Of a DNA stretch of 25,835 bases, positions 1 through 22,879 are shown piece after piece. The notes under the pieces are model-generated. The model ran no database searches. It was not told the DNA's origin and saw only the letters and a program-made list of their open reading frames with translations. The first letter of the stretch is position 1, and every line of letters begins with the position of its first letter. Both the position numbers and the translations under genes were made by a program. The stretch is from an uncultured bacterium (GTDB lineage Bacteria > Caldisericota > Caldisericia > B22-G15), in NCBI GenBank assembly GCA_965612865.1, contig CBFDTJ010000013.1, positions 1-25,835 on the forward strand. The letters run 5' to 3'.

Positions 1-3000
1 GATAATAAGTAGTTTTTGTAGATACATATAAATCCTCTCCTTCCTGATATTTTGGACTTCCTGCTTCTAATTCACTTACTGGTGCGGTGTTATCCAGATA
101 ATATGTTGCCCGCTTTGTAAGCTCTGTATTTCCTATTACATCAACACTGTAATAATCCACATAATAAATTCCATCTTCTCCTACTATTGTAAATGTTCCT
201 TCATATATTTCCCAGCTGCTTTCTGCTATCTGCTTGCTGCTTACTCTGTACCATGTCTTATCCACTCCCAGCCCTATCCCATCCCCTACTTCTACCAGGT
301 CATCTACTGCAGTCAAAGTTATTGGTGTTTCAGAAGTTATATAAGTTGAACCATCAACAACATAATCCGGTTCCCCATGAGAAATTGTTGTCCGTGGGGG
401 CTGTATATCCCAGATTACTTCAAATCTTCCACTTGAAACTTCACTCCTATGTCCTGCCCAGTCCTCTGCTTCTATCTTCAGTACATAAAATCCATAGGTG
501 GGTAAATCCAGCGGCTCTATCTTATCCACTAACTTTACATAATACTTCTCTCCAATCTTACTTTCATCTTCTGCTTCTACTACTTCTAAATAAGCAGTAT
601 ATTCATAAGGTCCCGCATCGGTAATATTAAATGAGATTTCTATTAAATTCTTTTTAGCAATAAATTCCTCTCCCCCTTTTGGAGATATAATTGTGATTTC
701 TGGTGGACTGTCATCAAGATAAACTTTTAATACTTTCTCCTCTTCTTTATTTTCCACATTATCTATTGAATAATAAGTAATCAAATGCTCTCCTTCTTCT
801 CTTTTTATATCTTCAATTCCATATAAACTGAAATAATCAAATTTTGCCGGAATACTTTGAGATGTAAAATCCTCTCCATTTGTTGCTCCTAATCCTGCTT
901 TTAAATTACTCTCCAAAAACTCATATTCTCCTATCTTACTCCAGTTCAGACCGTCTGTGGAGTAATAGAAGTTATAATTTCCCTTTTTCTTAACTTTAAG
1001 ATAAATAAAATCAACATTAATCCAGTTTATATCATTTACAATCTCTTCGTATTCACCATTTACTTCCTTACCAGCTATAATTTTCTTTCCATTTTCATAA
1101 CCTTTTACAAGTTTCAAGTAATTATCATCATCTTGATAAATATATATCCCTGCTTCCTGCCCTTTTATCCGGGGAGAAAACTCTAACTTTGTCTCTACTG
1201 CCCAACTTTCTTCGGAATATAGTGTGCTCCTTAAAAGGATATTTTGTTGATTATTATTAACTTCTTTTAAACTACCATAATCAGTATAAATTATAAGGAA
1301 TTCTCTCTCTTCCCTTAACGTCCAATTCTCATTATTTTCTCTTAACCACTCCCACTCAGAAGAGAGTTCTTGCAGATTGAATTCATCCTTCCAGGAAGTT
1401 CGTTTCCTTTCTCCCAGAATAAAAGAACCCACATAGATTTCATCAAAACCATAATCCAGACGATAAAAAGTTTGTTTGATGCCACTGAGATTATCTCTTG
1501 CCTTAATTAAAAATGGAGTGTATGAGGTAAGTAAAAATTTCTCCTGCCATTCAAGATGAGGAGAACCCGGTTTGAGAATACTCAAAGGAGGCGATGTATC
1601 CAACACCACCTCAAGAGTATGAATCTCTTCTTCATTTCCTACCACATCCACACTATGATATTCTATCTTATGTACTCCTTCCTTTGAAAGGTTGAAAGGA
1701 GCAGTATAAATTGATACCGTACCATTGTCAATTCGATAATAGGTTCTGTCCACTCCCAGCCCTTCTCCATCACCTACAGTAAGTAAATCATCCTCTGCTT
1801 TTAACGTAAAAAGAGTGGTTCTATTTACAAAAACCGGCTCTTCCCAGTATTTAGGAGTTGAAATCTGAATTTCTGTTCTGGGGGGAAGTAAATCATGTAT
1901 CACCTCAAACGTCCCGGAAGTGGAAATAATCTGATTAAATGCCCAGTCTCTTGCTTTCACATAAAGTTGCCAGAAACCATAATCAAGATCTCCAGGTTCA
2001 ATCTCTTCCCCTAAATTTACCGCTACTGTAGTTCCTTTTTCCAGATGTTTCAACCAGGCATAACCAGTAGGATATGGGTCAAGATTATCCTTTATTAAAT
2101 AATCTATTTTAATTTTATCCAAAGTGGCAATATACCTTTCCCCTTCGCGTGGACTCTCTATGGTAATCTCCGGAGGTGTATAATCAATAATAAATCTTCC
2201 AGAAGTGTCAATAGACTTATTTCCAGCTAAATCTTCCATTTTGACCCAGATTACAGTTTCTCCTTCTGGATCCTCTTTTGTTACAATATACCGATAATGA
2301 TAAGGAGAAGAGTGACTGACAAAAGTAGCTGGTCTACTATTAATTAACACTTCAGGATTCCGGAGTAAATCTTCTGATACCAGAAAGTATATATCCACTT
2401 CCTCTAACGAAACAACATCTGGAAATGTAAGAATTCTTATTACCTCAGGTGGTGTGGTATCAATTAGAACTTTATATATCTTTTCTTTTTCTTGATTCAA
2501 AACATTATCTATAGCATAATATTTTATTTGATAGACTCCTTCCTCATTAAATGAAAAAGAAGAAATATATTCTTCATATGGCAAATCATTGATGCTAAAG
2601 AATATTTCTTTTACTCCACTCAGACTATCTGTGCTCTGGAAAGCAAAAAAGTCCATGTTGTTAGCATAATCCTTTTCTCCATCATTATAAAGCAAACGAG
2701 AAGCAAAGAGATGAGTTTCAGGTGGAGTCCTATCAAGAATCACTGTGCTGGACTTAAAAATTTCAATATTTTCCAAATAATCTTCCGTCCAGAAATCAAC
2801 TCGATAAGAGCCTTCTTCTCCTTCTATCCTGAATGGAAATTCATAAAGTTGCCAATCCCCCTGATTTATACGGTAAAAACTTGCTTCTACACCACAGGGA
2901 TAAATCCCCTGATCTCGAGAAATAATCGTCAGTTCTGTATGAGAAGAAATGTAATTTTTATACCGCGGCATCCCAATTTCCAGAAAGGATACAGGTTCAC

Positions 3001-6000
3001 TATTATCAACTGTCAATTTACAGATATCTACTGAAGATTGATTGCCAAGATTATCACAAGCTCTAACTTTCAGTTCATAACTCCCTTCTTCATTTAAACT
3101 GAAAGCCTTTTGATACTCCTGCCAGGACCCTTCATCTATCTGATACTCAATTCTCCTTATCCCTGAACCTTCACCATCATCTGCCCTGAGGGAAATATGC
3201 GTGTAAGAAGAAATCCAGTTTCTACTGGCAATATAATACGGTGGAGAAAATGAAATTTCTACATCCGGGGGTGTACAATCAAGATACAGAGTAATACTAC
3301 CTGAAAAAACATTTTCCACTTTATCTTCGGCTCGATATTCAATTATTCTTTCTCCATCATCTCCAGTTAAGGTTATTGGCTGAGTGTATTTCCGCCATTC
3401 TCCACCTTCAATCCGATACTCCAGTTTTTCTAGTCCCGCTGGAATTACTCCTTTATCCTGGCTATAAAGATTCACCTCTGTTTTAGAGGTAATATAATTC
3501 TCATATTGCGGCTCTCCCAATCCAACCAATACCACCGGAGGAGTGGTATCAACAATAATTACCCTGGAATGGATACTTTCTTCATTCCCTAAATAATCTA
3601 TTCCATACCATTCTACAGTAACAACTCCCTCTTCAGCAAGTTTTACAGGAACAGTATAAACTTTCCACTCGCCTCCTCCAATACGATATTTTATTTCTTT
3701 TAAACCCGAACCAGCGTCTTCTCCAACAAAAGCAAGAGAAGTACGGGTGGAAATATAAACATTGGATAAATCTTCATACCGGGGCTCACCCACAACCAGA
3801 TCGGTCCGGGGTGGAACTGTATCCAGAGAAATATTTAAAGTGCGGGTAGACTCAAGGTTGCCCACAAAATCCTTGCTTCGATAGAGTAGCTTCTCAATAT
3901 CTTCTGAATCTATTCTAAACTCTCTCACATATACATACCAGTTCTCTCCCTGATCCAGTGAATATTCTGTTTTCCAGACTCCTGCTCCTGAACCATCATC
4001 GCTTACAAAATAAAATAGTGTATGTGTGGTGACATAAACAACATTATCTTTAACATATTGTGGGCCTCTCATCTCCACCGAAGTCGTTGGAGGAGTTCCA
4101 TCAAGATATATCTGATATTCTCTTATTTCTTCCTCATTACCCGCTCTATCCACAGCATGATACTGAATTATATGCTCTCCTTCTTCAGAAATGAAAAAAG
4201 GCTCTTTGTAAATAGTTATGGGCCCTGCATCTACCATATACTCTATATAACTGACTCCTGAAAGATTATCTGTAGCAGTAACAACAAAAGAAGAAGTTAT
4301 CACCGCATACTTTCTATCTTCCTTAATAAAAACTGGCTCTGTCAAACTAATTTCAGATATTGGAGGAATATCGTCAGGAATAGTGATCACAAAAACTTTA
4401 TCTGAGGGAGCACTTTCATTTCCAGCTTTATCCACAGCAGTAATCCAATAAGACTGAACTATCCCCGCCACCGCTTCAGTATCATAATAAACCGTAAACT
4501 TATATGGCTTTTGATTTAATTTTTCACCATCTCTATAAATATAATAACCCGCTAAGTCCTCTTCTGTATTGGGCTGCCAGAAAAGTTTCACTGTATTTAT
4601 ATTTAACACTTCGTATCCTAAACCGGCAGGCGCTTGAGGCGGGATTTCATCAACTCTGATTGTTACTCTCTTTATCTCTTCTTGATTGCCAAATATATCT
4701 TCACTGTAATAAGAAATTTCATATTTGTCCTTAACCTGCTCTGAACCCCGCAAAATTACCTGTTTCAAAACAGGACTCACATTGTTGTCTTCTGTAACAA
4801 AAACAACCTTATATTGAATATACCTTCCTGGAGGAGAGGTGATTTTTGCTCCTGTCTGAGTATATGGGGAAGACCAGTCTGACCAGGTTGAATCAGGCTG
4901 AGAAGCATTTCCGGTGCGGGTGTAAAAAGTAAGTGAAGTACCCGGAGGAACCTCACTCTCCCATTCAATATTTTCCCATGTGACTAAAGCTCCAGCATCA
5001 AAAATTGTAGATATAAATTCACCACTGGTAACATACGTTTCTGGAATCACATCTACAAAAATTTCTCCACCAGCCCCTTCCAGAATCATCCACTCACTCC
5101 CATCCCAGCGGGTTTTTATAAGATCACCGTAACTCCTTATATAAAGATAATCATTCAGTGTGTCATAAAAAACTGACATAGGACAAAGATACTCCTTTCC
5201 ATCCGGTCTTTTATCCATTACCTCCCAAATGGTACCACTCATATTGGTCTTTACTACTCTGAAGTTAAATCTATCAGCTACATATATCACATCCTCCTCA
5301 GGATCATAGGATACATCCATAGGAGAAGCAAATTCTCCTATTCCTTCTCCATACTTACCAAGAGTCTTCCATCCAGAACCATCTATTTTTGTTCTCACGA
5401 TACGGTGATTACCATAATCAGCCACATAGATAAATCCTGTGTTTGGGTCATAATCTATCCCTTTAGGAGAGTTAAACCCACCAAGAAAATTAGTTGCATA
5501 TCCTCCTATCTTGCGTTTGGCTATCCGCCCATACCTTTCTTCTGCAACATAATAATATCCTCCAGCAACGTCAACATCTAAACCTGTGGGTTGATGTATA
5601 TAAAAGATCCTATATACCCTTCTATTTTTATATCTATAAACATAGTTTCTACCATAGTCACTCAGATAAAAATAACCACTATTGCGGTCATAATAAATGC
5701 CATAAAGATTATAGAAATCCCAGGGCTCAGTATAGGTCTTCCATTCACTACCATCCATTTTACAACGGATAATTTTATTCCCTTTGGCGACGTATACAGT
5801 AGAAAGATTTTGAGACAATGTGATTTTATCTCCTTTAAGAAAAGTATTACTAAACTCCCCGGATTGCCAGTCCTTCATATCAGAAATGACAGATGGAACA
5901 ATCTTCTTTACCTGAAAATATAATGGGGAAGTATAACTCTGCCACTCTCCTCCATCTATTTGAAAACGGGTAACCTTCACTTCTATATTATCGGTGGGAA

Positions 6001-12000: not shown

Positions 12001-15000
12001 TCTTCTCTTTTTCGTATTCTGGAAAAACACCTGAAATTCTATAAACAATTCCTGCCCCTATCTCATTTTCCTCTGGATAATACTCCTGCTCCTGCCAGCT
12101 TAAATCATAAAATATTTCAATATAAGGTATCCCTGTATCAATCCTGACTTTAAACTCTTTACTGTGAAATTGATCGGGATTGGTAAGACTCACTCCACTT
12201 ATTACTCCTTTATATACTCCAGAAACAAAACCTTCTCCGTTCCATTCCACACAGTTTATCCCACCACGAGATTTAAAATCTGAAATTACAGGATGACCTT
12301 CAATATTAATGTTGATTCTACCCTCTTCTGTTGTATTGAAGAAGATTACTGTTTTCTCACCATAATATGGATTAAATGTCGCCGGATCAACACCTGCACA
12401 GGTAATTCTAAAGGGAACATTATCTACTTTTACATTTAATGAAACAACAGCAGATATATTCCCTGCTCTATCCACGGCCTTCACACTTATAGTATGTACT
12501 CCCTCTTTTTCTCTTTTTGTCTGCCATTTATAAACGAAATATTCTCCCTCTTTATTTTCGTTTACGCTCCGTGTGGAACCATCAATTATAAACCAGACTT
12601 TCTCTATTCCAGAACCATCATCTTTTGCCTCAACTCTTATCTCCACTTCTCTACTTACAACTTCGCCCTCAGAAGGAGTTAAAATTCTGACCGAAGGAGA
12701 CCTGGTATCAAGTAAAATGCTTTTACTTACCGCAACACTCTTCTTCCCTTCAAGATCTTCCACCTGGACATAAACTGTTTTTAAACCATCTTCTTCACTC
12801 AATAAAAATGGAAGTTCATAATAAAGTGGTTGCCAGGATGCACCCAGGAGCTCTGAATTTTCTGAAACTCTTACCTGTGTACAAAAATCAGAGGATTTTA
12901 TCCTTATTTTTATATTCCTCTCATTGGTATATTTCTCTGAATCAGTATCTCTATCAAGCAATTTCAAGGAGACAACCTCTGGCAAAGGCAGATTTACCTT
13001 AATTCCTTTTGAAGTCATAATTTCACTCCAGCGTCCTGCACCATTTCTGGCCTTCACTTTAAAATAATAACTTTCTCCCGGTATTAAACCCTCACCAGAG
13101 ACAGAAACACTTCCTACCCTGCTCTCCTGCCAGTTAACCAGATTTTCATCTCCAGAACTTATCCCTGTATAAAATATATCCCTTTTCTTTCCTTCATTAT
13201 TTTCTCCACCAAAAAGAAAAATTTTATCACCCAGAACCAGAGTTTTTATTCCTTTCATCGGTTCAGGAAGAAGTGTTGTTTCCTTCCAGTCTCCAATATT
13301 TCCATTCTCATCTATCTCTGCAAAAATCACTTTGTCCATAAGATTTTCCTCTTCTCCTCCTATAACATAAATCTTATTTCCGGCAACAACCACTGAATAA
13401 CTCTTCAGGAAAGAAACCGGAAGTAACCCAACCTCTTCCCAGCCCTTTCTTAAACTTCCATCCTCAAGAACTTCCCCTCTATATACCTTATTACTCCAGG
13501 GATATCCTCCCACTATATAAATGAAATTACGATATACCCCTGCACCAAAATTTTTCAAAACATCCTGTGGTAGATTATCTATCATTATCCAGTATTTTAT
13601 CTCACCATCAGGAGAGGGCCTTGTCCAGTAAACTTCTCTATTACTTCCCCCAAGAATATAAATCCTATCCCGACATACAACCGCCACATGGCCAGATTTA
13701 CTCGCAGGAAGTGCGGTGGTTTCTCTCCAGTCAGTAATTCTTCCATCAAGTTCTGGAACCGTATAATAAACTTTATTTACAGGATATCCATTTATATCTC
13801 TACCACCAAACAAATAAATCTTGCCTGCATAGGAAATAGCTGCAGCATCATATATCTTTCCATCCAGAGGTTCTTGCTTTTCAAAATAAAAATTCCAGAT
13901 GTTATTCGTTTCTTTTAATTCTCCTTTATACACCTCTTGCGTATTATATCCACCAAGAAGATATACACATTCCTTCCTGCCTGTAAAATGCCTTACTACA
14001 GAAAATCCCCAGTTTATATCCTGTGGAATATCAGAAGCAATCTCTGTCCAGATTCCTATCCTCCCATCAGAAAGAACTTTTGAGTGATAAAAAATATTAT
14101 CGACTTTTAAATATATATCGTTTTCTAAAACTGCTAATTTTCCATTCGCTATTCCATCAGGTAAAGAAACTGTGGGATGCCATATACTTAAATGTCCGGT
14201 AGATGAGTCAATCTCTGTGTAAAACACCTGGTTACTTTTCTTCCATTCCTTATTATAACCACCAAAGACATATATCTTGTCATTAATAACCGTTGCTACA
14301 GATTGTGCTCTTTCTTCTGGTAGAGGAATGGTTCTATTCCAGAATGATAAATCTCCTGTTTCTGAATCCACATAAGCAAAATAAACATCTTTTCTCCACT
14401 TCCATTCTCCATCTATACCACCAATAACGTAAATTCTATTGTCCTTTACCGCAAAGGAATGATATTGCAGAGGGGAAAAGAGTTTTCCTGCCTTCCAGGG
14501 AGTGGAAATAGAACCATCCTGATTTATTCTTGCATAAAAAATATCATCACTTACCTTATACTCTCCATTTTCTCTTTTTAATCCTCCCAGAATATAAATC
14601 CATCCATTTGAAATACTTACTGAAAATCTTGAAATATCTTCCACAGGTAAAGGCTCCACCTCCTGCCAATAAGAGATATTACCTCCAGAGTCAACTTTTC
14701 CATAATAAACTCTCTTTCCTTCAACTCTATAAGCATAGCCGTTATAAACATTGAAGAAACAAACTCCCTCAGGCTGGGTATAACTTTTTTCCCAGCTTCC
14801 CAGATATCCTCCACCATTCATTCCCACAGCATACTCATAACTATCAATTCCGCTTTCAGGGTCCTGAGAAGAGAAGTTTGCTATCAGAGCCTCTCCAGAA
14901 TTTACTCTATCCTTTTCCACCTCTATCAACGGAACTTCCGGTGGAGTTCCATCGTATCTTAAAATAATACTGGCATTATTCCTGTAATCCACATTTCCTG

Positions 15001-18000
15001 CTCTATCCTTAAGCCAGAGGTATAAAGGATTCTCACCATGTAGAAATGTTCTTGCTGTAAAGGGTTTTTCTTCTGTATAAACTCCATCTTCATTATTTTC
15101 CGGTGGAGTTCCCACTTTCCAGTAAGCTCCTTTTATTCCAGAAAAATCAACAGGATTCTTCCAGTCAATGACATATACTCCATCACATTTCCAGCTGGCT
15201 TCTTTCCTTCCATCTGCTGTCAAATCACCGGGTGAAGCAGGAGCTTTTTCATCCACAGTTGGACTCAAGAAATAATACGAAAAACAACTTATTGGTGCTG
15301 TAATGGTGTTATTTACCACATCTATCGTGGCATTCTCCAGCGCCTCCCATTTTTTCTCTTCAAAAACATAGTGATATATCTTTATTGTCTCTGTACTCTC
15401 TTCAATCCTTTCTCCGGTCTTTTCATCCAGTGGAAGATCTTCTTCTCTATATCTCATTGTCAAATACGCATTATAAAAGCCCGGTGGTGGTTCATTGAAC
15501 TTTAATGTGGGTTTAAATTCATATACATAACCTCCAATAACAAAATAGTCTCCTTCCGGTGGATTATCAGCAATATCTTTAAAAGTAGTGGTGGAAATTG
15601 GTGTTATGGTTATATATTGAGTGGTGTCATACCAGCCATTTTTTAATTCAACCTGAACATTTCCCCATGGGTCTTTAACTATCCCTCCTGAAGGATGAAC
15701 CTCCGTTCCTATCAATACCGTAATCGTATCTTTTACAACTTCATTAACGATTAATCTTACATAATATTTTCCATTAAATCCCGTAACATCCCAGAAACCA
15801 AGATAATCTTCTTCCAGTACCGGTATATCTGATTCTTTTATCAAATACCATGTGACCTTATCAGTTGAATATTCCACCCGATAATAGCTGACATCTGTTC
15901 CTGTTACAAAAGGCGCCCATCCTTTTATAGGAATATAAACATGTCCCGACTTAACCTCTGGATTTAACCTTACAGTAAAAGTATCAGCATTTACATTTAA
16001 AAGTAAAAAGTCATCCTTTGTATCATCTCCATTCCATTCAAAAATATATTCAGGGTTATTTTGTTCTGTATCCGGGTAGAATGGGCCCTCTATCATCCAG
16101 GAACTCCTCCGTCTATAACTTGTCCAGATATCACCTTCTATTTCTGGCCAGATCTGAATTCTCTTCACCTCATCAGGTGATGAAAGATAATTATAGCCAC
16201 TTTTTCCAATATCAAATACACCACCAAAAGTAGTTGTTGCTTTTAAATTAAAAAATAGAGATTTCCTCTCTTGGTTTATTCTTATATTCTCTACTTTTAT
16301 ATTTATATCCTCTGGATATTGATAGGCTATATCAACATTCCCACTAATTATCTCTCCTTGTGGGGAACTACCATCTCCTCTTTTTAACAAAATTTCAATA
16401 TTTCCCCGTTCATAAATAGAGTTGTTACTCACATATTGATCTTTATACTCCTTTTCCCCTGTAAGTATATATTCTGTCCAATAATTTACCCAAATATTTG
16501 CTGCTCCATAGGAAATATCTTCACCAAAAATTTCATAAGTAGCTCCATCTGCCCATAACCAGAATTGAGTTTCTCCCGCAGGAACCTCAAAGTAAAATGT
16601 CTCTTCTCCCCAACTAGGAAAAACATAACCCCACCATTCTGTATCACCAATATTAACCCACTCTCCAGCAGAAATATCTTTTATTTTTTTATAATAGTAA
16701 TTTTCTCCTATAACTGCCCAAAGTATATACATTGTTGTGGGACGATTAAACATTATCCCAGCAAAACAATTATCTTCCCATTTAGCTCTAACTTTTACAA
16801 ATTGGTTTCTTGAGTATCTTATTAAAATGGGACCTTTACCTACCCCTCCTTGACCTTCTTTACTATGATGCTCTTCTTCCTCTTTTTCTTCTATTCCGCT
16901 TACTATTATCTTATAATCAAACTTCCTGTAATCCTCTCCTTCTCCTCTCTGCCTCCAAGAAAACCATAATCCTCCTTCTGCGTTGTTATCTGGAAATTCC
17001 ACTAACTCAGGTGGGTGGGGCAGAACTGCTGGGTATGTGCTTATATTGCTTTCATTTCCAACATTATCAATTGCATAAAAGTAAATATGATGAACTCCAG
17101 AACTTAATCCAAGTAAAAACTGCTCTCTTACTTCATCCGCTTCATAACTTACCCAATCTCCATCATCTATCTTTACTTTTATCTCCTTCACCCCACTTTC
17201 ATTGTCTGTTGCTGTTATCCTGTAATAATAATCCTCATATACATAACCCTTATCTATCTTCCCTTCTACAATTATTTTTACATCTGGAGGAGTTCCATCT
17301 ACATTTATCTCCATCTCAATTTCTCTTGATTTATTTCCTGCAAAATCTATAGCGTAATAACTGATTCTATGTGTTCCTGATGAAAAAGTTAAAGGCTGAG
17401 TATATAAAAGATAATCCACATCTGTCTCTGTCTTATAGTAAATTCTATCTTTATCAGTTAATCCAATAAAGTCATTCTCAAGACAAAACTCTGTCTCTGG
17501 AGAATACCATGCTTTTACTTCCACTGCTTTTGTGCTTATACTTATTACCTGTGAAACTACTCCTGCAGTCCCTTCTTGAGGTAATTCTGTTGTTGCTACA
17601 GGAATTGTATCTATTACTACATAATACTCTCCGCTTGCTGGATTTCCTGCCATGTCTTTCCCTGTTATGATTATTTTTGTTAGACCATTTGGCGTATTTC
17701 CATCAATTATCAAACTTCCTGTATATTTTATTCTGTCTGTTATGTCCCGATATAAACTCTCTAAAATTCCTTTTGCTTCAACCTCAAAATTTAATTCCTC
17801 CATCTGTTCGCTCGTTCCTACCTCTATTTCACTAACCCCTAAGGGTATCCAGTATCTCTCATTCTCATCTTTGTTTAATTCAATACCTGCACTTGTTATT
17901 GTCATTGTTGTAATTTCAGGGGTTTTATCGTTATCAACTATAATTTCTAATTCTGCTGTTGCTTGATGATTATCCACATCTGAAATATTTACTGTTAAAG

Positions 18001-20167
18001 TATAGACCCCATCCAAAACTTCCGTGGTATCCCATATCCCATTATTCCACCCAGATATTAAATCACTTCCCGAACTTAGTAAAGAAGCATCTCCATATAG
18101 CTTATATTCATGATATCTCTCCGAAGCAGAACCAGTCATTTTTACATAGCCATAGATTATATCCTGCTTTGTTGTTTTATCACTCTTTGCTATTGTCTTA
18201 AATTCTATTCTATACATCTCCTGGCCGTCTATTAAATAATTAGCTGAATATATCCCGTAAGTATTTGTTATCCATTGATTTTGACTGTCCCTTGCTAAAA
18301 CTGTAAACTTTACATTCCCTTCAACCGGAGAAATGGCACTGTTTGGTTTATATATTCCCGCATCTTCTATCAGGTTTATTTCTTGAACTCTAGCATCATT
18401 TTGATCATATATTTTTATTTTCTTAAAATATGGATATCCATCATCAAAATGTTTATCATCTTGAAAGCAATAAATTAATGGATTAATATAAACATCTCCT
18501 TCTTTTACCTCATAATGTAGATGATTTTTAGAATCCGTTTCTGCTAATATATCACCCTTATAAATTACTTGTCCAGGTACTGATAACTGCTTGTTTTGTA
18601 TATGAATATAAGCTGTTTTTGTATCAAATACTCCTTCATGACTAAGAATAACAAAATCATTACCAATATCCCCATCACTCCTTATATACCCCTTATCAGC
18701 AGCATAAATTTTTGTACCTTTTGAGCCATCAATATCAATCCCTGTATGAAACCGCGTTGGTATACCGTCTGCAACAGGGCGTGGATCACCAAATACACTA
18801 TTAATCTGAGTATGTTCCCAATCCATTGGCCATCTTAACCACAGAATTGGCGGGTCAAATCCAAGATAATAATAACTTTCCACTTCTACCTTCTCATTGT
18901 ATGGATCTTGGGCAGATATTTTTACTCTTATCTGATCATAAACTAAATTATTCTCGTCATTCGGAATTTTTACTGTAAAAGAATAATCTCCAGTTGACTG
19001 ACCAGTAAGTGTCGCCGAAGAAATAGGAATTCCACTCCTTATATTTTTTACTTCCCATTCCACTTTCATAACATTTCCGTCAGATATAGAATAATTGAAG
19101 GTTACCTCCTCTCCAGGGTCTATATTATCGCCATCTATAACAGGCTCAAGAATTGTTACTACTGGTTGGGTAGTGTCATTGGGAATTCCTTTTTTAGTAT
19201 CCGAATAATAGCTCCTATTCCCTGCATTATCCTCTGCCTGAACTCTAAAATAATATCTAACTCCTGTTATCAAACCTTTTGCTGTATAGTAATTATTTGT
19301 TGTGGTATCTTCCTGTTTATTCTGTGTAAACTCACTATCAGTCGCCCATTCAACTTTGTAATGTTTCACTCCACTCCCTGTATCTGTTGAACTATTCCAT
19401 GTTAAATTTAACTCTACTCCTGTCCCCGGGTCTGTTATATTTAGATTTGAAGGAGTTGTAGGTGGTTGAGTATCTTTTTTAAATGTTATACTATCAGAAG
19501 CACTTAACCCAACTTTATCATAAACCCTGATATAAATTGTATTACTTCCTTCACTTAAACTTGACCAGGGAACTCCCCAGTTTGTTGTATATGAATAGCA
19601 ATCAGTTGTAAAAATATTTATCCATGCTCCATCAGAACCGATTTTATATTGAGCATAATCCAATCCGCTTTCATAATTCCCCTCTTCATCAACATCCACA
19701 AAATCTACATCTATTACATTCCCGGGATCAGATTTATACCATCCAGTAGTTGGGTATTGAGATTGCCAAACCTCTATAGTAGGATTTGTAGTATCATAAG
19801 GATATGTTATTGTCAACTTACATTCTGATGAACTCCCTCCATAAGAACTCTTTACTATTATATAGTAAGTCTCTGTTCCAGAAGGAGATACTGAATATGA
19901 TATGCTTTCATCTAAGTTGCCCGGATTTCTTGACGAAGCCACTTCATTAAATCCTGCGTCCAAAAGTTCCAAATCATAATTACATCCCTCAGGAATATTT
20001 TCAAGAGTAACAGAAATATTGCCGGTATAATTAACTTGTTTAGTATATGATTTTGAATCATTATCTCCCCCAAGTGTAAAGTAATAAATATCTGTATCAG
20101 CGTCTATGTTGGTATTCCATAAGAATAAATAAGTAAAAATCAAGAATAATTTAATTTTTAACTTCAT
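1..20167 (-). CDS. Giant secreted multidomain surface protein (>=6722 aa, 3' end beyond the window): PPC-like, FN3, M23 peptidase, ZU5-like x2, Kelch, FlgD-like Ig, NHL-like, ConA-like and many Ig-like repeats
   Basis: ATG at 20167-20165 overlaps the TGA of the 535-aa ORF. N-terminus MKLKIKLFLIFTYLFLWNTNIDA looks like a signal peptide. Manual translation stays open in one frame down to ...YLDNTAPVSELEAGSPKYQEGEDLYVSTKTTYY at the window edge. The ORF track lists no stop-terminated ORF in this frame, which agrees with an ORF open to the edge. Confidence 0.95.
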   Translation of the reverse strand, partial: MKLKIKLFLIFTYLFLWNTNIDADTDIYYFTLGGDNDSKSYTKQVNYTGNISVTLENIPEGCNYDLELLDAGFNEVASSRNPGNLDESISYSVSPSGTETYYIIVKSSYGGSSSECKLTITYPYDTTNPTIEVWQSQYPTTGWYKSDPGNVIDVDFVDVDEEGNYESGLDYAQYKIGSDGAWINIFTTDCYSYTTNWGVPWSSLSEGSNTIYIRVYDKVGLSASDSITFKKDTQPPTTPSNLNITDPGTGVELNLTWNSSTDTGSGVKHYKVEWATDSEFTQNKQEDTTTNNYYTAKGLITGVRYYFRVQAEDNAGNRSYYSDTKKGIPNDTTQPVVTILEPVIDGDNIDPGEEVTFNYSISDGNVMKVEWEVKNIRSGIPISSATLTGQSTGDYSFTVKIPNDENNLVYDQIRVKISAQDPYNEKVEVESYYYLGFDPPILWLRWPMDWEHTQINSVFGDPRPVADGIPTRFHTGIDIDGSKGTKIYAADKGYIRSDGDIGNDFVILSHEGVFDTKTAYIHIQNKQLSVPGQVIYKGDILAETDSKNHLHYEVKEGDVYINPLIYCFQDDKHFDDGYPYFKKIKIYDQNDARVQEINLIEDAGIYKPNSAISPVEGNVKFTVLARDSQNQWITNTYGIYSANYLIDGQEMYRIEFKTIAKSDKTTKQDIIYGYVKMTGSASERYHEYKLYGDASLLSSGSDLISGWNNGIWDTTEVLDGVYTLTVNISDVDNHQATAELEIIVDNDKTPEITTMTITSAGIELNKDENERYWIPLGVSEIEVGTSEQMEELNFEVEAKGILESLYRDITDRIKYTGSLIIDGNTPNGLTKIIITGKDMAGNPASGEYYVVIDTIPVATTELPQEGTAGVVSQVISISTKAVEVKAWYSPETEFCLENDFIGLTDKDRIYYKTETDVDYLLYTQPLTFSSGTHRISYYAIDFAGNKSREIEMEINVDGTPPDVKIIVEGKIDKGYVYEDYYYRITATDNESGVKEIKVKIDDGDWVSYEADEVREQFLLGLSSGVHHIYFYAIDNVGNESNISTYPAVLPHPPELVEFPDNNAEGGLWFSWRQRGEGEDYRKFDYKIIVSGIEEKEEEEHHSKEGQGGVGKGPILIRYSRNQFVKVRAKWEDNCFAGIMFNRPTTMYILWAVIGENYYYKKIKDISAGEWVNIGDTEWWGYVFPSWGEETFYFEVPAGETQFWLWADGATYEIFGEDISYGAANIWVNYWTEYILTGEKEYKDQYVSNNSIYERGNIEILLKRGDGSSPQGEIISGNVDIAYQYPEDINIKVENIRINQERKSLFFNLKATTTFGGVFDIGKSGYNYLSSPDEVKRIQIWPEIEGDIWTSYRRRSSWMIEGPFYPDTEQNNPEYIFEWNGDDTKDDFLLLNVNADTFTVRLNPEVKSGHVYIPIKGWAPFVTGTDVSYYRVEYSTDKVTWYLIKESDIPVLEEDYLGFWDVTGFNGKYYVRLIVNEVVKDTITVLIGTEVHPSGGIVKDPWGNVQVELKNGWYDTTQYITITPISTTTFKDIADNPPEGDYFVIGGYVYEFKPTLKFNEPPPGFYNAYLTMRYREEDLPLDEKTGERIEESTETIKIYHYVFEEKKWEALENATIDVVNNTITAPISCFSYYFLSPTVDEKAPASPGDLTADGRKEASWKCDGVYVIDWKNPVDFSGIKGAYWKVGTPPENNEDGVYTEEKPFTARTFLHGENPLYLWLKDRAGNVDYRNNASIILRYDGTPPEVPLIEVEKDRVNSGEALIANFSSQDPESGIDSYEYAVGMNGGGYLGSWEKSYTQPEGVCFFNVYNGYAYRVEGKRVYYGKVDSGGNISYWQEVEPLPVEDISRFSVSISNGWIYILGGLKRENGEYKVSDDIFYARINQDGSISTPWKAGKLFSPLQYHSFAVKDNRIYVIGGIDGEWKWRKDVYFAYVDSETGDLSFWNRTIPLPEERAQSVATVINDKIYVFGGYNKEWKKSNQVFYTEIDSSTGHLSIWHPTVSLPDGIANGKLAVLENDIYLKVDNIFYHSKVLSDGRIGIWTEIASDIPQDINWGFSVVRHFTGRKECVYLLGGYNTQEVYKGELKETNNIWNFYFEKQEPLDGKIYDAAAISYAGKIYLFGGRDINGYPVNKVYYTVPELDGRITDWRETTALPASKSGHVAVVCRDRIYILGGSNREVYWTRPSPDGEIKYWIMIDNLPQDVLKNFGAGVYRNFIYIVGGYPWSNKVYRGEVLEDGSLRKGWEEVGLLPVSFLKSYSVVVAGNKIYVIGGEEENLMDKVIFAEIDENGNIGDWKETTLLPEPMKGIKTLVLGDKIFLFGGENNEGKKRDIFYTGISSGDENLVNWQESRVGSVSVSGEGLIPGESYYFKVKARNGAGRWSEIMTSKGIKVNLPLPEVVSLKLLDRDTDSEKYTNERNIKIRIKSSDFCTQVRVSENSELLGASWQPLYYELPFLLSEEDGLKTVYVQVEDLEGKKSVAVSKSILLDTRSPSVRILTPSEGEVVSREVEIRVEAKDDGSGIEKVWFIIDGSTRSVNENKEGEYFVYKWQTKREKEGVHTISVKAVDRAGNISAVVSLNVKVDNVPFRITCAGVDPATFNPYYGEKTVIFFNTTEEGRININIEGHPVISDFKSRGGINCVEWNGEGFVSGVYKGVISGVSLTNPDQFHSKEFKVRIDTGIPYIEIFYDLSWQEQEYYPEENEIGAGIVYRISGVFPEYEKEKILESHNIILKGRDDILLYDSGWQEYEEGKSRTWYKVTLPEGVVPSPGIFKFEIQARRREFPYLMGNSKSVISIIDWLEKPVEWGEIQCEEIPEKEIPEEMWKALSDLGEYVYLESNLYRYTPENLSFTREHPYCIDIPYTDDKYGGALRIYRFDNEENKWIKVSYQFVDKYNHRIVGEVEKPGVFALLNVVDEEPPVISNLVATPAEFSPNRDGINEVSTITFHLADNESEYIPWLSVRVFNNENECIRTIFEDLRGEKGVNEVVWNGLDDRGRIVPQGEYRIRIKATDLFGNTAEAEIPVRVEYEYIVDNTPPTMPVVEDEGDFTPSTDELYCQWYSFDPYPGSGIMDNQFRIYSIIPRGIGKWTLTGYHLPPLREEVKAVICNDFIYIIGAERYADNEELVRVDFNRIQSDGLINPDTWKRTLDVPEKMSRFSALSYRGYIYLIAGYYTNKVYYTKPDPLTGEIKNWQTASPLPVETLYESSAFIFSNRIYVTGGLYTETEEVYGWPVTEVYPEYRIYFSAPINEDGSIGEWVISGISLPQTGYYRYAAGFGDKIYILEEDRIFFAEIDPVTGDITGEWIEGPQLPERLWAHTMFTWRDVLYIFGGYNLDTNEVSNRIYYARIRGDGSLEDWQVDYLPGGRYFHDVVVRGKDIYLIDGYDGEGEKYAIYKAPILEDYNIVKNWTSVGEEQSVFLQNLNLEAGKRYYFDVITINRGNLISAVGSSDGILVGMPVLVRVENVEVRNPGVGKALVITWQKVSGGVAGYRIYMSTQKVGGYRLIATQSADSNQCYITDLIDGKKYFFRVAAFDSKLREGPKSFPASGIPLDEIPPASISDLQAIASDEGNVVLSWRATGDNGIQGNIIGGKYWLKYSDMKEILNDGEWEIAPYELLWDTDTVPGQIERIVVSGLTSGLTYYFALRLQDEAGNWSGISNCIGVKAGRDSTPPITELEFVDGKQYPTSDGHYASRDTKIKFIAVDPWGEYIPSGVEKTFYRINNGEWILYSKPFILEEGINLIEFYSQDRYGNKEEIKDRKVYTDATGPVCEVKAGYPGYEREGVIYISSSTPIEILATDPEVKGVASGVDIIYYSVNQGEWKEYEHPIYFTQEGSYIVSAYAVDRLGNKGEIFTGKEFRVDTTPPVFSGVLVYPWPEVGLEEATILFLVSEDLKEPPEVYVGEKRAQYVTYDSEIRRYHYKYQVTPQDLPGVYTITIKGKDLVDNEGMDTSGRINISWEDNTSPVSNLIIGKPVLTGNIVGLNTPFTIETSDDLSGVKEIHYAFDDEWNIVAGTKAVFTITSSKKPYTLKIKNFEIANLEYREPEKWLYVALPDRIVRMKTDGSEKTEIASGKFWGANRVWYDGNYIYVADASYYVRRMLPDGSNFQYEHHSGIRSIAVDQEENMYILYSDYIRKQKFGEWWNYESLYYWALNNGIDIDYDPEENKLYVLDRGYRRIYKMNPDGSGYSYYYNYKLKDMYGLDYNPRDGSIYLTNYWGCYIVKTKMDGSIWQTYGKWGRGGPGQFYCPYDIAVDPDTDELYVSDYYNDRIVKTKIDGSIWQVIANVSRPRGIMFTQGKASVSGESLSEVIDVGEEVLCRYIYWSASPGIVGLRIRTGNTPVPDYSWSDWSELYSSQGERAICPLERYIQIKAEFFVEGDSPPQLEEVRLKVIPLTEIRYFSKDYWGNTEAEQSTEVFLDNEPPAKVRNFRGSIWGVDDVSLSWIKNQERDLGGYYIYRDGERIRTVSADIEHITDKNVSLGRHEYKITAFDLVGNESEPAIVTVEIKDTQPPVTVVKTSGDLYNRDGINYAPLNFYYWLESKDTLSGVDYIEVNIDEMGYIVYTTSITFTEEGLHTIRYRAVDKAGNWESEKVFTVYVDTTPPESMVYFTGTYYRIDDKVYLNKNTKVSIQAQDIYKDTYASGVNQILYRLNGGEWHVYSDPVSVTQDVYLFEYRSIDNVGNEEIIKSFEVSFDTVAPVTEIAVYGPWYEKEGIWISSLTPVGFVPTDNIEVKVTRFQIDGGEWQSYTSPLYFQVKKIVPSVISDMKDWQSGEFSNTFLKGDKITLSQNLSTVYVAKGNKIIRCKMDGSEWKTYTEPWDFYNLYGIYYDRNSGYFYLSDYGRNYVYRYKNRRVYRIFYIHQPTGLDVDVAGGYYYVAEERYGRIAKRKIGGYATNFLGGFNSPKGIDYDPNTGFIYVADYGNHRIVRTKIDGSGWKTLGKYGEGIGEFASPMDVSYDPEEDVIYVADRFNFRVVKTNMSGTIWEVMDKRPDGKEYLCPMSVFYDTLNDYLYIRSYGDLIKTRWDGSEWMILEGAGGEIFVDVIPETYVTSGEFISTIFDAGALVTWENIEWESEVPPGTSLTFYTRTGNASQPDSTWSDWSSPYTQTGAKITSPPGRYIQYKVVFVTEDNNVSPVLKQVILRGSEQVKDKYEISYYSEDIFGNQEEIKRVTIRVDEIPPQAPAGLGYEVLNINTVKLFWQPNTEEDLAGYYIYRDGEKLNQKPYKFTVYYDTEAVAGIVQSYWITAVDKAGNESAPSDKVFVITIPDDIPPISEISLTEPVFIKEDRKYAVITSSFVVTATDNLSGVSYIEYMVDAGPITIYKEPFFISEEGEHIIQYHAVDRAGNEEEIREYQIYLDGTPPTTSVEMRGPQYVKDNVVYVTTHTLFYFVSDDGSGAGVWKTEYSLDQGENWYVYVREFRIDSEDIEKLLYRSKDFVGNLESTRTLNISLDTVPPRTDLVVGEPRYEDLSNVYISTRTSLAFVGEDAGSGLKEIKYRIGGGEWKVYTVPVKLAEEGVVTVEWYGIDYLGNEESIHSRVIIVDTTPPVVLVGLGEPQYENYITSKTEVNLYSQDKGVIPAGLEKLEYRIEGGEWRKYTQPITLTGDDGERIIEYRAEDKVENVFSGSITLYLDCTPPDVEISFSPPYYIASRNWISSYTHISLRADDGEGSGIRRIEYQIDEGSWQEYQKAFSLNEEGSYELKVRACDNLGNQSSVDICKLTVDNSEPVSFLEIGMPRYKNYISSHTELTIISRDQGIYPCGVEASFYRINQGDWQLYEFPFRIEGEEGSYRVDFWTEDYLENIEIFKSSTVILDRTPPETHLFASRLLYNDGEKDYANNMDFFAFQSTDSLSGVKEIFFSINDLPYEEYISSFSFNEEGVYQIKYYAIDNVLNQEKEKIYKVLIDTTPPEVIRILTFPDVVSLEEVDIYFLVSEDLLRNPEVLINSRPATFVSHSSPYHYRYIVTKEDPEGETVIWVKMEDLAGNKSIDTSGRFIIDYTPPEITIESPREGERYIATLDKIKIDYLIKDNLDPYPTGYAWLKHLEKGTTVAVNLGEEIEPGDLDYGFWQLYVKARDWAFNQIISTSGTFEVIHDLLPPRTEIQISTPKYWEEPVFVNRTTLFTLKAEDDLLTVGDGEGLGVDRTYYRIDNGTVSIYTAPFNLSKEGVHKIEYHSVDVVGNEEEIHTLEVVLDTSPPLSILKPGSPHLEWQEKFLLTSYTPFLIKARDNLSGIKQTFYRLDYGFDEIYVGSFILGERKRTSWKDEFNLQELSSEWEWLRENNENWTLREEREFLIIYTDYGSLKEVNNNQQNILLRSTLYSEESWAVETKLEFSPRIKGQEAGIYIYQDDDNYLKLVKGYENGKKIIAGKEVNGEYEEIVNDINWINVDFIYLKVKKKGNYNFYYSTDGLNWSKIGEYEFLESNLKAGLGATNGEDFTSQSIPAKFDYFSLYGIEDIKREEGEHLITYYSIDNVENKEEEKVLKVYLDDSPPEITIISPKGGEEFIAKKNLIEISFNITDAGPYEYTAYLEVVEAEDESKIGEKYYVKLVDKIEPLDLPTYGFYVLKIEAEDWAGHRSEVSSGRFEVIWDIQPPRTTISHGEPDYVVDGSTYITSETPITLTAVDDLVEVGDGIGLGVDKTWYRVSSKQIAESSWEIYEGTFTIVGEDGIYYVDYYSVDVIGNTELTKRATYYLDNTAPVSELEAGSPKYQEGEDLYVSTKTTYY
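815..1400 (-). other. Domain of giant protein: concanavalin A-like lectin/glucanase (beta-xylosidase C-terminal-like)
   Basis: WKDEFNLQELSSEWEWLRE...NILLR...WAVETKLEF...QEAGIYIYQDDDNYLKL...IYLKVKK...FYYSTDGLNWSKIG...KAGLGA...AKFDYF. Confidence 0.8.
2462..4372 (-). repeat. Seven tandem ~90-aa Ig-like repeats (OmpL47-type) within giant protein
   Basis: Units start DDIPP, DGTPP, DTVPP, DTTPP, DCTPP, DNSEP and DRTPP. They share (S/A/C)G(V/L/I)...Y.I..G.W..Y..P(F/I)...EG...I.Y...D..(G/E)N.E. Further copies occur near 17050-17600, 8590-9170, 6095-6655 and 1-1900. Similarity is at protein level; the DNA is diverged. Confidence 0.85.
4735..5910 (-). other. Domain of giant protein: NHL-like beta-propeller plus 'WSDWS' beta-sandwich (module 2)
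   Basis: FNSPKGIDYDPNTGFIYVADYGNHRIV and GEFASPMDVSYDPEEDVIYVADRFNFRVV are canonical NHL blades. Then YVTSGEFISTIFDAG...RTGNASQPDSTWSDWS...GRYIQYKV...SPVLKQVIL. Confidence 0.82.
6995..8100 (-). other. Domain of giant protein: NHL/YWTD-like beta-propeller plus 'WSDWS' beta-sandwich (module 1)
   Basis: Blades WLYVA, YIYVAD, IAVDQEENMYIL, DYDPEENKLYVLD, DYNPRDGSIYLT, GQFYCPYDIAVDPDTDELYVSDYYNDRIV. Then SGESLSEVIDVG...RTGNTPVPDYSWSDWS...RYIQIKAEF...PQLEEVRL. Confidence 0.8.
9180..9790 (-). other. Domains of giant protein: two tandem FN3-like domains
   Basis: LVITWQKVSGGVAGYRIY...ITDLIDGKKYFFRVAAFD and DEIPPASISDL...VVLSWRATGDNG...VSGLTSGLTYYFALRLQDEAGNWS. Confidence 0.75.
9975..10920 (-). repeat. 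Domain of giant protein: six Kelch-type blades (block 2)
   Basis: FIYIIGA, YIYLIAG, RIYVTGG, KIYILEE, VLYIFGG, DIYLIDG, each preceded by W...(L/V)P and followed by (V/I)(Y/F)(Y/F)...DG/TG. Confidence 0.85.
11095..12420 (-). other. Domains of giant protein: FlgD-like Ig (~12130-12420), ZU5-like 2 (~11435-11760), FlgD-like Ig (~11095-11425)
   Basis: TFNPYYGEKTVIFF...VEWNGEGFVSGVY; LYRYTPENLSF...IDIPY...LRIYRFDNEENKWIKV...VDKYNHRIVGEVEKPGVFAL; EFSPNRDGINEVSTITFHL...VWNGLDDRGRIVPQGEYRIRIKATD. Confidence 0.7.
13160..14820 (-). repeat. Domain of giant protein: about 11 Kelch-type blades (block 1)
   Basis: Repeated W...LP.......IY(I/V)(L/I/F)GG...V(Y/F)Y...(D)G.I units, e.g. WIYILGG, RIYVIGG, KIYVFGG, VYLLGG, KIYLFGG, RIYILGG, FIYIVGG, KIYVIGG, KIFLFGG, plus two degenerate blades. 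Confidence 0.85.
15266..15710 (-). other. Domain of giant protein: ZU5-like domain 1
   Basis: SGGIVKDPWGNVQVEL...ITITPI...VYEFKPTLKFNEP...LTMRYREEDLP...KIYHY...KKWEALENATIDVVNNTITAPISCFSYYFL follows the bacterial ZU5-like pattern that normally ends in HFS. Confidence 0.6.
18470..18840 (-). other. Domain of giant protein: M23 family Zn-metallopeptidase (LytM/lysostaphin-like)
   Basis: RWPM...INSVFGDPR...RFHTGIDI (HxxxD at 18734-18748)...KIYAADKG...TAYIHI...GQVIYKGDILAET...HLHYEV (HxH at 18515-18523)...INPL. Confidence 0.9.
19180..19473 (-). other. Domain of giant protein: fibronectin type III
   Basis: DTQPPTTPSNLNI...LNLTWNSSTDTGSGVKHYKVEW...YTAKGLITGVRYYFRVQAEDNAGNRS. Confidence 0.8.
19800..20095 (-). 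other. Domain of giant protein: PPC-like (pre-peptidase C-terminal type) beta-sandwich
   Basis: GNISVTLENIPEGCNYDLELLDAGFNEVASSRNPGNLDESISYSVSPSGTETYYIIVKS fits the PPC pattern (YDL.L.d.....vasS...g..dE.i......gtYYi.V). Confidence 0.7.
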
Positions 20168-21771: not shown

Positions 21772-21846
21772 TTTATCCTCCTCTTGATTTTTGGTTCGAA
21801 AAATGCATATTAATCCTTATCTTCCTCATTTTCCCTCTCACGGCTT

Positions 21847-21870
21847 CGTCATCCCGGGTTATTCCCGGGA
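21847..21870. repeat. GC-rich palindrome resembling a CGTC-tagged REP-like element
   Basis: CGTCA-TCCCGGG-TTATT-CCCGGGA: perfect 7-bp stem in an AT-rich intergenic region, preceded by CGTC. Confidence 0.45.
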
Positions 21871-22013
21871 AGCATTGTCATACCACAGGGAAAATAAACG
21901 ATGAGAGAAATAAACTCTGCTGGTGGCAGGCTGATTCTTTGTAGACTGGAGGAAATTAATGGTGGCTAAACTGATAGAATAAGAGAATAATTCTCTTTTA
22001 TCTCCTCCCATCG

Positions 22014-22028
22014 CTAATTTTAAATTAG
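22014..22028. promoter_or_regulatory. Palindromic candidate operator overlapping the -10 box
   Basis: CTAATTT-T-AAATTAG, a perfect 7-bp inverted repeat with a 1-nt spacer. Confidence 0.4.
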
Positions 22029-22050
22029 TAAATCTTTATTCCGTTGTCAA
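22022..22050 (-). promoter_or_regulatory. sigma70-type promoter upstream of the 535-aa gene and giant gene
   Basis: Minus strand TTGACA (22050-22045), a 17-nt spacer and TAATTT (22027-22022): perfect -35, optimal spacing, partial -10. Confidence 0.6.
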
Positions 22051-22073
22051 GATAAATTTTCCAATTTCTGGAA

Positions 22074-22877
22074 TTAAAATTTAAATCCCGACGGGAAAAA
22101 GGTTAATTTTACTTTTTTCTGTATAATGCCAAATCTATTTTTGGGAGAAAATAAATAACGTCCTTTTTCTTCAGGTTTTCCTTCTAAATATAGGACAACA
22201 TCTACCAGATGTTCAAGTAGTGAGGGGCCGGTGATTTTACCTGATTTGGTTAAATGTGAGATTAAAATTATGGCTAACTCTTTACTTCTTGCAAGGGATA
22301 TTACTTCTAAGGTTATTGCTTTTAACTGACTGTAACTTCCTGGAAGGGCATTTACTCTTTCATCATAAAGCCGATTAATGGAATCGAGAATAAGTAATTT
22401 AGGGTTGAGTTTGAGAGTATAATCTATAATCTCTGTTAATTCAGTTTTTGTGAACAGATAAAGATATTTTTCTCTTATTTTTAATCTTTTTATTTTTAGA
22501 TTTAATTGTTTTATTGTTTCTTCGGAAGAGATATAGAGTGTAAAACCATATTTTTGGGAAAATCTTGCTCCTAATTGTAAGGCAAGGGTGGATTTTCCTA
22601 TGCCATGTTTTCCTCCTAAAAGAATTACACTTCCTGAATAAATTCCTCCTCCAAGGAGATTATCTAAAGATTTTATTTTTAATGGATAAAATTTTACTCT
22701 TTCGGTTTTTAAATGGGTAATTACTTCTGGTTTTTCTTCTTCATCAAAGGTTATTAAATCCAGCGGTAATTCTTTGATATGTCCTCTCATTTTACAATAG
22801 GGACAGAAGAGGGGTTTTTTACCAGAGGAAGTGGAAGATAACTTTCTACCACAGGAAGAGCAGATGTATTTTAACAT
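22074..22877 (-). CDS. radA: RadA/Sms-like ATPase lacking the C-terminal Lon-like domain
   Basis: N-terminal C4 finger (CSSC-x15-CPYC), LDNLLGGG, Walker A GKHGIGKST, YISSEE, Walker B LLILDSI, GP..LEHLVDVV and the KNRFG signature. Only 267 aa. Confidence 0.8.
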   Translation of the reverse strand: MLKYICSSCGRKLSSTSSGKKPLFCPYCKMRGHIKELPLDLITFDEEEKPEVITHLKTERVKFYPLKIKSLDNLLGGGIYSGSVILLGGKHGIGKSTLALQLGARFSQKYGFTLYISSEETIKQLNLKIKRLKIREKYLYLFTKTELTEIIDYTLKLNPKLLILDSINRLYDERVNALPGSYSQLKAITLEVISLARSKELAIILISHLTKSGKITGPSLLEHLVDVVLYLEGKPEEKGRYLFSPKNRFGIIQKKVKLTFFPSGFKF

Positions 22878-22879
22878 AG

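Follow-up and report, generated by a model that had tools for sequence, protein, structure and literature searches.

Among the described systems closest to the gene reported here, SprB of Flavobacterium johnsoniae is a 669-kDa repetitive adhesin of the T9SS (type IX secretion system), described as held at the cell surface by SprF, an adjacent PorP-like barrel (PMC9143113). The giants of Omnitrophota and other phyla reach at least 30,000 amino acids (aa), possess numerous transmembrane (TM) regions and SecA-DEAD domains, and are proposed to adhere to other cells and to digest walls; according to the same preprint, assembly fragmentation hides giant proteins (West-Roberts et al. 2023, bioRxiv 10.1101/2023.11.21.568195). 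The present locus lies on contig CBFDTJ010000013.1 (C13 of genome G000), which belongs to GCA_965612865.1, a metagenome-assembled genome (MAG) labelled as Caldiserica. The whole contig, 25,835 nucleotides (nt) in length, was analysed and is called the window below. All its features discussed here are on the minus strand, where one gene, open at its 3' end, occupies 2..20167 and codes for a protein of at least 6722 aa.

This protein is an unusual member of the known giant bacterial surface adhesins and not a new kind of system; what is new in it is the M23 peptidase tip and the consistently nested design of its modules. In its layout, known here from the N-terminal 6722 aa, it appears to resemble the T9SS giant adhesins. 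The two would share a Sec signal peptide, a similar size and a highly repetitive, beta-rich surface structure, and two relatives of the giant (the C50 paralog and the L028 homolog, see below) end in a T9SS-like C-terminal domain (CTD) directly followed by a PorV/PorP-family gene, as sprF follows sprB, the gene of an adhesin with a type B CTD. The differences are that the C-terminus of the giant is unseen and no T9SS core was found in the bin, that the CTDs of the relatives score at or under the Pfam cut-off, that the labelled host does not belong to Bacteroidota, and that the function of SprB is gliding motility. To our knowledge, SprB has neither a peptidase nor propellers.

With the Omnitrophota giants, the protein shares a very long mosaic structure and a small genome. 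Membership of that type was nevertheless rejected, given its size of at least 6722 aa, the lack of TM helices and the absence of SecA among the Pfam hits. The preprint does not mention M23, Kelch, NHL, T9SS or Caldiseric. An earlier note on this DNA, made from the sequence alone, had called the gene giant. This goes somewhat too far, since with at least 6722 aa the protein falls below the 10,000-aa threshold for "large" used in the giant-gene literature.

Reading frame and assembly support

Starting at an ATG at position 20167, the minus-strand frame runs through 6722 codons to position 2 without a stop and is open at its 3' end, as seen in a listing of open reading frames (ORFs) that allows open ends and in the translation. 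The uninterrupted frame to the window edge claimed in the earlier note was thus recovered in full. Its description as hidden, i.e. absent from the ORF track, is correct in that the default listing gives 26 short ORFs of 60-180 aa between 1 and 20160 and leaves the giant frame out; the cause, however, is a listing rule and not biology, because open-ended ORFs are not listed. Since the window is an entire contig, the stop codon lies outside the assembly (MAG of 1.42 Mb in 111 contigs, 87.6% complete, with 0.69% marker-based contamination). Stop codons make up an estimated 7% or so of triplets in DNA of 36% guanine-cytosine content, so that an open frame of 6722 codons is effectively impossible by chance. 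At the 5' side, the start codon and the TGA of an upstream 535-aa ORF are fused as ATGA, and a purine-rich stretch precedes the ATG. The gene is real and the observation is confirmed.

Other assemblies provided further support. A second public MAG contains two contigs corresponding to window 271-16875 and 16753-25823, with 99.95% identity, no gaps, 14 mismatches in total and a mutual overlap of 123 bp; their frames stay open, the first over 5534 aa with both ends open and the second over 1138 aa with an open 3' end. A Logan contig of 17,242 nt from run X1 corresponds to window 1130-18371 without a single difference, and another of 3135 nt starts at 18347 and continues onward. Run X1 may be the source sample, and the agreement with Logan is therefore that of an independent assembler, not of independent data.

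One public version of the contig disagrees. The gene call P0159 of the Joint Genome Institute (JGI), 1069 aa long and taken from a 25,861-bp version, is identical to the giant over 1052 aa and then goes out of frame, as would fit a 41-nt deletion of window 16970..17010 that would split the ORF after aa 1052. The deletion is treated here as an assembly slip or a minor variant, although it also gives some ground to the view that the gene is an artefact or dead, either through a chimeric join of paralogous repeats or because the population carries a frameshifted form. The second MAG, too, breaks at 16753-16875, 100-250 bp from the deletion site, the Logan contigs have a loose end at 17052, and paralogs with 86% DNA identity are present in the same bin. 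On the other side, the 41 nt are present in three assemblies, which agree base for base across the site; Tandem Repeats Finder detected no DNA tandem arrays within the gene; the frame is open over 20,166 nt; and a homolog from another organism, P0009 (MBU2528333.1, partial, 2565 aa), is colinear with aa 834-2942 over about 2100 aa at 45% identity, and hence spans the suspect site. An artefact or a dead gene is thus regarded as very improbable.

At the left end, the window breaks because of a repeat shared with paralogs: the first 1.1 kb are repeat-rich, with short unitigs summing to a depth of 99 vs. 29 elsewhere, and the DNA is 86% identical to the paralog contigs C50 and C59. In public gene calls, the giant appears as unnamed pieces only, of 5534, 1138 and 1069 aa. 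Metagenome assemblies routinely lose giant surface proteins or break them up, and this gene is a case in point.

Modules of the giant protein

The whole protein was searched against Pfam as 22 overlapping segments, and NCBIfam was also used. The partial product has a mass of at least 767 kDa and an isoelectric point of 4.6, and no TM helix was found in its 6722 aa, save for one borderline hydrophobic window of 19 residues above 1.6. Close to the N-terminus, aa 472-563 (18479..18754) form a peptidase M23 domain with HTGID, the His of AYIHI, and HLH, identified by profiles and by alignment to solved peptidases. PF01551 matches with 46.6-50.8 bits (cut-off 28.7) and is covered over positions 1-96 of 96. 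In an alignment to the solved structures 6jmx and 5j1l, HxxxD, the middle His and HxH are all conserved, the HTGID, AYIHI and HLHYE of the giant corresponding to HSGTD, YYHL and HLHF of 6jmx. Because all zinc-binding and catalytic residues are present, the domain is probably active as a peptidase, judging from these motifs. The cell-wall peptidase proposed in the earlier note is accordingly found, with its HxxxD, third His and HxH.

M23 is the class of peptidoglycan endopeptidases to which LytM and lysostaphin belong. The nearest NCBIfam families, MepM, ShyC and Pgp3, all remain far below their cut-offs. As compared with characterised M23 endopeptidases (6jmx of the Pgp3/Csd3 type, TagE 5j1l, MepM), the giant shares all metal-binding and catalytic residues, but those enzymes measure a few hundred residues and act on their own or a competitor's wall, whereas the M23 domain represents less than 2% of the stalk here.

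The second salient feature is the way in which the binding modules are placed. A hidden Markov model (HMM) was built from one shaft repeat, of the OmpL47 type, and used to count its copies, giving 23 matches in the giant. Three copies are present as complementary halves (model positions 1-56/69-93, 1-64/66-93 and 1-65/64-93), with the two NHL modules and the ConA-like module lying between the halves. Around the Kelch regions, matching motifs were found at 1767/2364 and 3062/3426, with a C-terminal fn3 half at aa 2350-2385, which places the Kelch regions inside fn3-like domains just as the NHL and ConA-like modules sit inside OmpL47-type repeats. Because repeat halves flank every Kelch, NHL and ConA-like module, each recognisable binding module is shown, at the level of the sequence, to be a loop insertion within a shaft repeat. 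The protein provides a clean example of this modular rule.

The modules themselves, all named in the earlier note, were confirmed by Pfam profile searches: Kelch with up to 139 bits (Kelch_1 76-80 bits, cut-off 20.1), NHL with 57 bits (cut-off 20) and the ConA-like domain with 89 bits for GH43_C2, DUF1349 matching as well. Concerning the shaft, its repeat is the NF047446 (OmpL47-type) domain, which reaches 207.3 bits over the last 1000 aa (cut-off 40) and has 35 matches genome-wide, 20 of them on C13, where 15 of the 20 exceed the cut-off. The likeness with Leptospira OmpL47 consists in this domain; OmpL47 itself is a model of 336 positions, whereas the giant has 23 copies, three of which host inserted domains. 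Equivalence with OmpL47 was rejected, since the equivalog model NF047441 is not reached (205.8 vs. 250 bits).

From the N-terminus onward, a signal-peptide-like stretch occupies aa 1-23 (20099..20167; MKLKIKLFLIFTYLFLW...IDA), with a Lys-rich n-region, a hydrophobic core and an IDA-D site; the signal peptide of the earlier note was recognised again by eye from the translation. It is followed at aa 24-120 (19808..20098) by a PPC-like beta-sandwich, assigned by transitive similarity only. Pfam PPC (PF04151) gave no match at E <= 1 over aa 24-235, while pairwise comparison aligns aa 22-120 (E 4e-7 to 5e-5) with P0169 at three places; Pfam finds three PPC stretches in that protein, the best of which (residues 134-198) covers one of the three aligned places. 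The PPC domain of the earlier note is thus suggested by pairwise similarity to a PPC-bearing protein, but not by a direct Pfam hit, and is weakly supported. Next come a beta-sandwich at aa 125-232, of which tandem copies also exist in P0160, an fn3 domain at aa 238-318 (19214..19456, profile searches), an Ig/PKD-like domain at aa 335-405 and, after the M23 domain, two OmpL47-type repeats at aa 871-1049 (17021..17557), detected by profile searches and our own HMM.

The block at aa 1090-1635 (15263..16900) has no family match and, among the stored search hits, is shared only with P0009. An Atlas search with aa 1090-1860 returned no usable match; a search of representatives with the same range gave 853 proteins at E <= 0.001, of which most among the 150 listed match only around aa 1639-1745, a widespread fn3-like unit. 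An AlphaFold model of aa 1090-1640, computed from a 2-row alignment, was unusable (mean pLDDT, i.e. predicted local distance difference test, 39.2) and set aside.

Further along, an fn3-like domain at aa 1767-2390 (12998..14869) is split by a Kelch region of about 530 aa (aa ~1810-2340), and a second one, at aa 3062-3450 (9818..10984), by a Kelch propeller (aa ~3090-3400), both on the basis of profiles and motifs. Between them are a Big_7/OmpL47 repeat (aa 2490-2582) and a FlgD_ig-like domain (aa 2958-3010). Two fn3 domains follow the second propeller and give way to many OmpL47-type repeats in series, among which are two NHL modules and one ConA-like module. Within this series, profiles and the HMM delimit a repeat split by an NHL propeller and an extra module (aa 3959-4417, 6917..8293), a second one split by an NHL propeller (aa 4692-5173, 4649..6094) and one split by the ConA-like domain of the GH43_C2/DUF1349 type (aa 6190-6485, 713..1600). 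Seven consecutive repeats (HMM and NCBIfam) occupy aa 5265-5903 (2459..4375), and the last full repeat with the first 30 positions of the next lies at 2..409 (HMM), at the site of the assembly break.

As a whole, about 1300 aa (1090-1635, 2590-2950 and others) have no family assignment, and may hold a hidden enzyme. The claim that this combination cannot be assigned to a characterised protein held, as none was found: in the near-length class of a 5.8-billion-protein collection, searched with aa 1-1900, one of 806 scored candidates matched, with a query cover of 8%.

C-terminal relatives, proposed function and host

Among the contig ends of the MAG, none shares an overlap of at least 15 bases with the left end of C13, and only two distinct end overlaps of at least 20 bases exist in the whole genome, neither of them on C13. 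The second MAG stops at window 271 and does not extend the gene, and a scan of one metagenome for a leftward extension found no continuation, only L028, a 48% homolog. A loose end of the Logan contigs at window 17 was rejected as a continuation, since it reads like the C50 paralog.

Relatives offer a view of how such proteins end. On the metagenome contig L028 (ORFs 3-3080 and 3094-4005), a protein 48% identical to the last 700 aa of the giant continues for about 350 aa with more repeats, a DUF7305 domain and a bactofilin-like beta-helix; its end resembles Por_Secre_tail at a score (23.4 bits) below the cut-off of 27, and next to it on the 3' side is a PorV/PorQ-family gene (199.8 bits, cut-off 90). 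The equivalent shaft repeat of this homolog has an insertion whose end looks LamG/ConA-like, a reading of the sequence for which there is no profile hit. In the bin itself, C50 (L029; 1302-5988 and 6513-7499) carries a paralog of about 1560 aa, frameshifted near 3337-3380, and a PorV/PorQ-family gene. Besides a signal peptide, this paralog has the shaft repeats of the giant, DUF7305 and a bactofilin-like stretch; its Por_Secre_tail end exceeds the cut-off of 27 with 28 bits, and the PorV-family gene downstream scores 172.9 bits. The 1.8-kb contig C111 (L030; 3-1802) holds a 600-aa fragment, open at both ends, with repeats, an NHL module and the start of the same T9SS-like CTD, and the 8-kb contig C62 (L031; 3-8018) a single frame of 2672 aa, again open on either side, in which numerous right-handed beta-helix/NosD repeats give way to shaft repeats of the same kind. 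C59 has the signal-peptide start of a shorter paralog.

The repeat phase is 30 at the end of C13, 58 at the end of C62 and 66 at the start of C111, so that either C13 or C62 could precede C111. If it ended like L028, the giant would have a full length of about 7100 aa; with C62 as part of the gene, it would possibly exceed 10,000 aa.

By analogy with these relatives, we infer the anchoring, orientation, target and biological role of the giant as follows. It would be a Sec-exported adhesin stalk, anchored at its C-terminus, that presents an M23 endopeptidase to other cells or to wall debris, a proposal which we consider on balance probable, if narrowly so. A soluble, acidic megaprotein would be exported by Sec and then form a stalk at the cell surface, with about two dozen OmpL47-type and fn3-like beta-sandwich repeats as its shaft, and with the Kelch and NHL propellers and the ConA-like lectin fold as binding heads displayed from inside these repeats. 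The missing C-terminus would comprise some additional repeats together with a beta-helix and a T9SS-type CTD, as in the paralog and the closest homolog, and this CTD would tether the giant to a PorV/PorP-like barrel of the outer membrane. With the tether at the C-terminus and the M23 domain near the N-terminus, the peptidase would be at the end farthest from the cell, and the stalk would be an estimated few hundred nanometres long. So placed, the giant would hold its cell to others or to wall debris and cut peptidoglycan cross-links there, with antagonism, predation or scavenging as the outcome. An intact peptidoglycan endopeptidase on an adhesin stalk is a candidate for contact-dependent wall attack or necromass scavenging in a sediment bacterium with a small genome.

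Several observations weigh against this proposal. The gene's own C-terminus is not seen, which leaves the relatives as the basis for anchoring and orientation. For the T9SS core proteins SprA, GldM and GldK, the 87.6%-complete MAG gave no match, a search in which the controls were silent for SprA and GldM. Omp85/BamA was found in none of the 41 genomes of the class, so that an outer-membrane anchor is at odds with the host label, except if the contig is foreign. The 40 relatives searched (two of the same genus) yielded no ortholog, aa 1-1500 giving only single-domain matches and the last 1500 aa a weak single-domain match at E <= 1e-10 in three of the 40; there is thus no functional support from conservation. 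Lastly, the wall of the cell that makes them is also a target of M23 domains.

This last point leads to a structural or self-directed part of the envelope, such as a sheath, an S-layer-like coat or a cohesion fibre, in which M23 would remodel the cell's own wall. The enzymes of the three nearest M23 families do act on the peptidoglycan of their own cell, coat proteins are likewise huge and repeat-rich, and the nearby GGDEF and polysaccharide-export genes suggest a matrix context. A C-terminal anchor, however, would put the M23 domain more than 6000 residues away from the cell, the multiple lectin-like propellers suggest foreign ligands, and a gene not found in two same-genus and 38 other relatives would be odd for a core part of the envelope; we regard this explanation as rather unlikely.

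The carbohydrate-type matches could alternatively point to a cellulosome-like scaffold that binds particulate polysaccharide or other polymers for detritus feeding, with M23 as one of several degradative heads. In line with this, the ConA-like domain belongs to the GH43_C2/DUF1349 type, weak matches to chitobiase C-terminal, RGI-lyase and CBM-like domains were obtained, and the relatives found with the N-terminal 860 aa are called chitodextrinase by their source. Yet the profile search of the 22 overlapping segments detected no catalytic domain of a glycoside hydrolase or lyase, and the carbohydrate-type matches are accessory beta-sandwich domains; such a scaffold is considered unlikely.

A bolder form of the favoured stalk would be a contact weapon or feeding organ, in which a T9SS-like CTD tethers the protein, the nested heads seize a cell, the distal M23 domain opens its wall and the upstream protein acts as a partner; taken in all these parts, it is an unlikely combination. 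Were it true, and the contig truly of the Caldiserica-labelled genome, a lineage without detectable BamA would have acquired an outer-membrane-type sorting module together with a protein family. Searches of the literature yielded nothing relevant joining Caldisericota with type IX secretion or giant proteins.

The ownership of the contig was examined by synonymous codon usage, chosen because the protein's repeat composition confounds the tetranucleotide distance (C13 ranking 71 of 84), which had to be dropped. Seventeen of the 111 contigs (114.6 kb) prefer the codon usage of the giant over that of the large core contigs, namely C13, C50, C59, C62, C91, C60, C64, C65, C93, C111, C110, C104, C82, C98, C109, C80 and C78, a set which takes in C13 and all its paralog contigs. 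The correlation of their deviation vectors with C13's is 0.63-0.83, vs. a mean of -0.06 (standard deviation 0.28) for the others. These contigs carry both PorV-family barrels and two TonB-dependent receptors. Such figures would be expected if the host label were wrong, i.e. if C13 and its paralog contigs came from an unbinned diderm with T9SS-like sorting. The class-wide lack of Omp85/BamA matches (none of the 41 genomes, the giant's own included, vs. seven of seven diderm controls), the presence of the PorV family in two and of the upstream gene in one (its own) of 93 genomes of the phylum, and, as a lead only, the nearest Atlas clusters of the PorV-like protein, which are commonest in Elusimicrobiota, Bacteroidota and Fidelibacterota, point in the same direction.

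There are equally reasons to keep the contig where it is. The second MAG bins the same contigs with this genome, marker-based contamination is low (as given above), and one contig outside the suspect set has a cosine of 0.72 with C13, the maximum among the others. Moreover, the deviant contigs hold mostly flexible cargo (RHS, toxin-antitoxin, restriction and defence genes, glycosyltransferases), which deviates within any genome. Mis-binning from a diderm and a genuine flexible island are therefore held to be roughly evenly balanced. The matter bears on the gene's owner and not on its nature. The codon usage and gene content of contigs with giant genes can cast doubt on their bin, which bears on claims of phylum ownership for such genes.

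Plug domains were found in four of the 41 class genomes, none of them among the three single-contig genomes. The TonB receptor was also considered as a taxonomic marker, but its counterpart in G001, of the same genus, is about 39-40% identical in the plug and not an ortholog, and hence uninformative. Two further observations concern the deviant contigs: C104 (L050; 2-2155, minus strand) has a 718-aa ORF, cut by the contig end, that begins inside another M23 domain, and C82 (L051) has two RHS-repeat ORFs.

Upstream gene and neighbourhood

The 535-aa gene upstream (20164..21771) is, judging from the ATGA overlap, translationally coupled to the giant gene. Profiles and a model describe its product as a WD40-like beta-propeller with a hydrophobic N-terminus and a long helical hairpin, and neither Pfam nor NCBIfam contains a family for it. 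In the model, computed from a 5-row alignment (mean pLDDT 76.2, predicted template modelling score 0.62), the beta-propeller precedes the hairpin. Foldseek matched it to WD40-type propellers at TM-scores of 0.13-0.32; because these are low, only the fold class is supported.

Four homologs of this protein were found at 49-68% identity. P0007, one of the four (48-52% identity), is encoded on the same 35,582-bp contig of another MAG as P0009, the homolog of the giant, two locus tags apart, and the pairing of the two genes is on this ground taken as conserved outside the present genome.

Other very long ORFs are present in the MAG, of 2292 aa (5'-open), 1777 aa (3'-open), 2870 aa, 2368 aa, 1507 aa (open at both ends, Big_1/invasin-type), 2591 aa and 2224 aa, as well as one of 2144 aa with Kelch, CarboxypepD_reg and a FlgD_ig end; they are distributed over C65, C81, C93, C60, C4, C5 and C10. 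Further upstream of the giant, window 22074-25725 (minus strand) codes for a KaiC/AAA_25-like ATPase, an SNase-domain protein, a GGDEF diguanylate cyclase, a Poly_export-domain protein and an AAA_18 kinase-like protein. Ten of twelve relatives match the GGDEF protein, but at the level of the domain only (34-38%).

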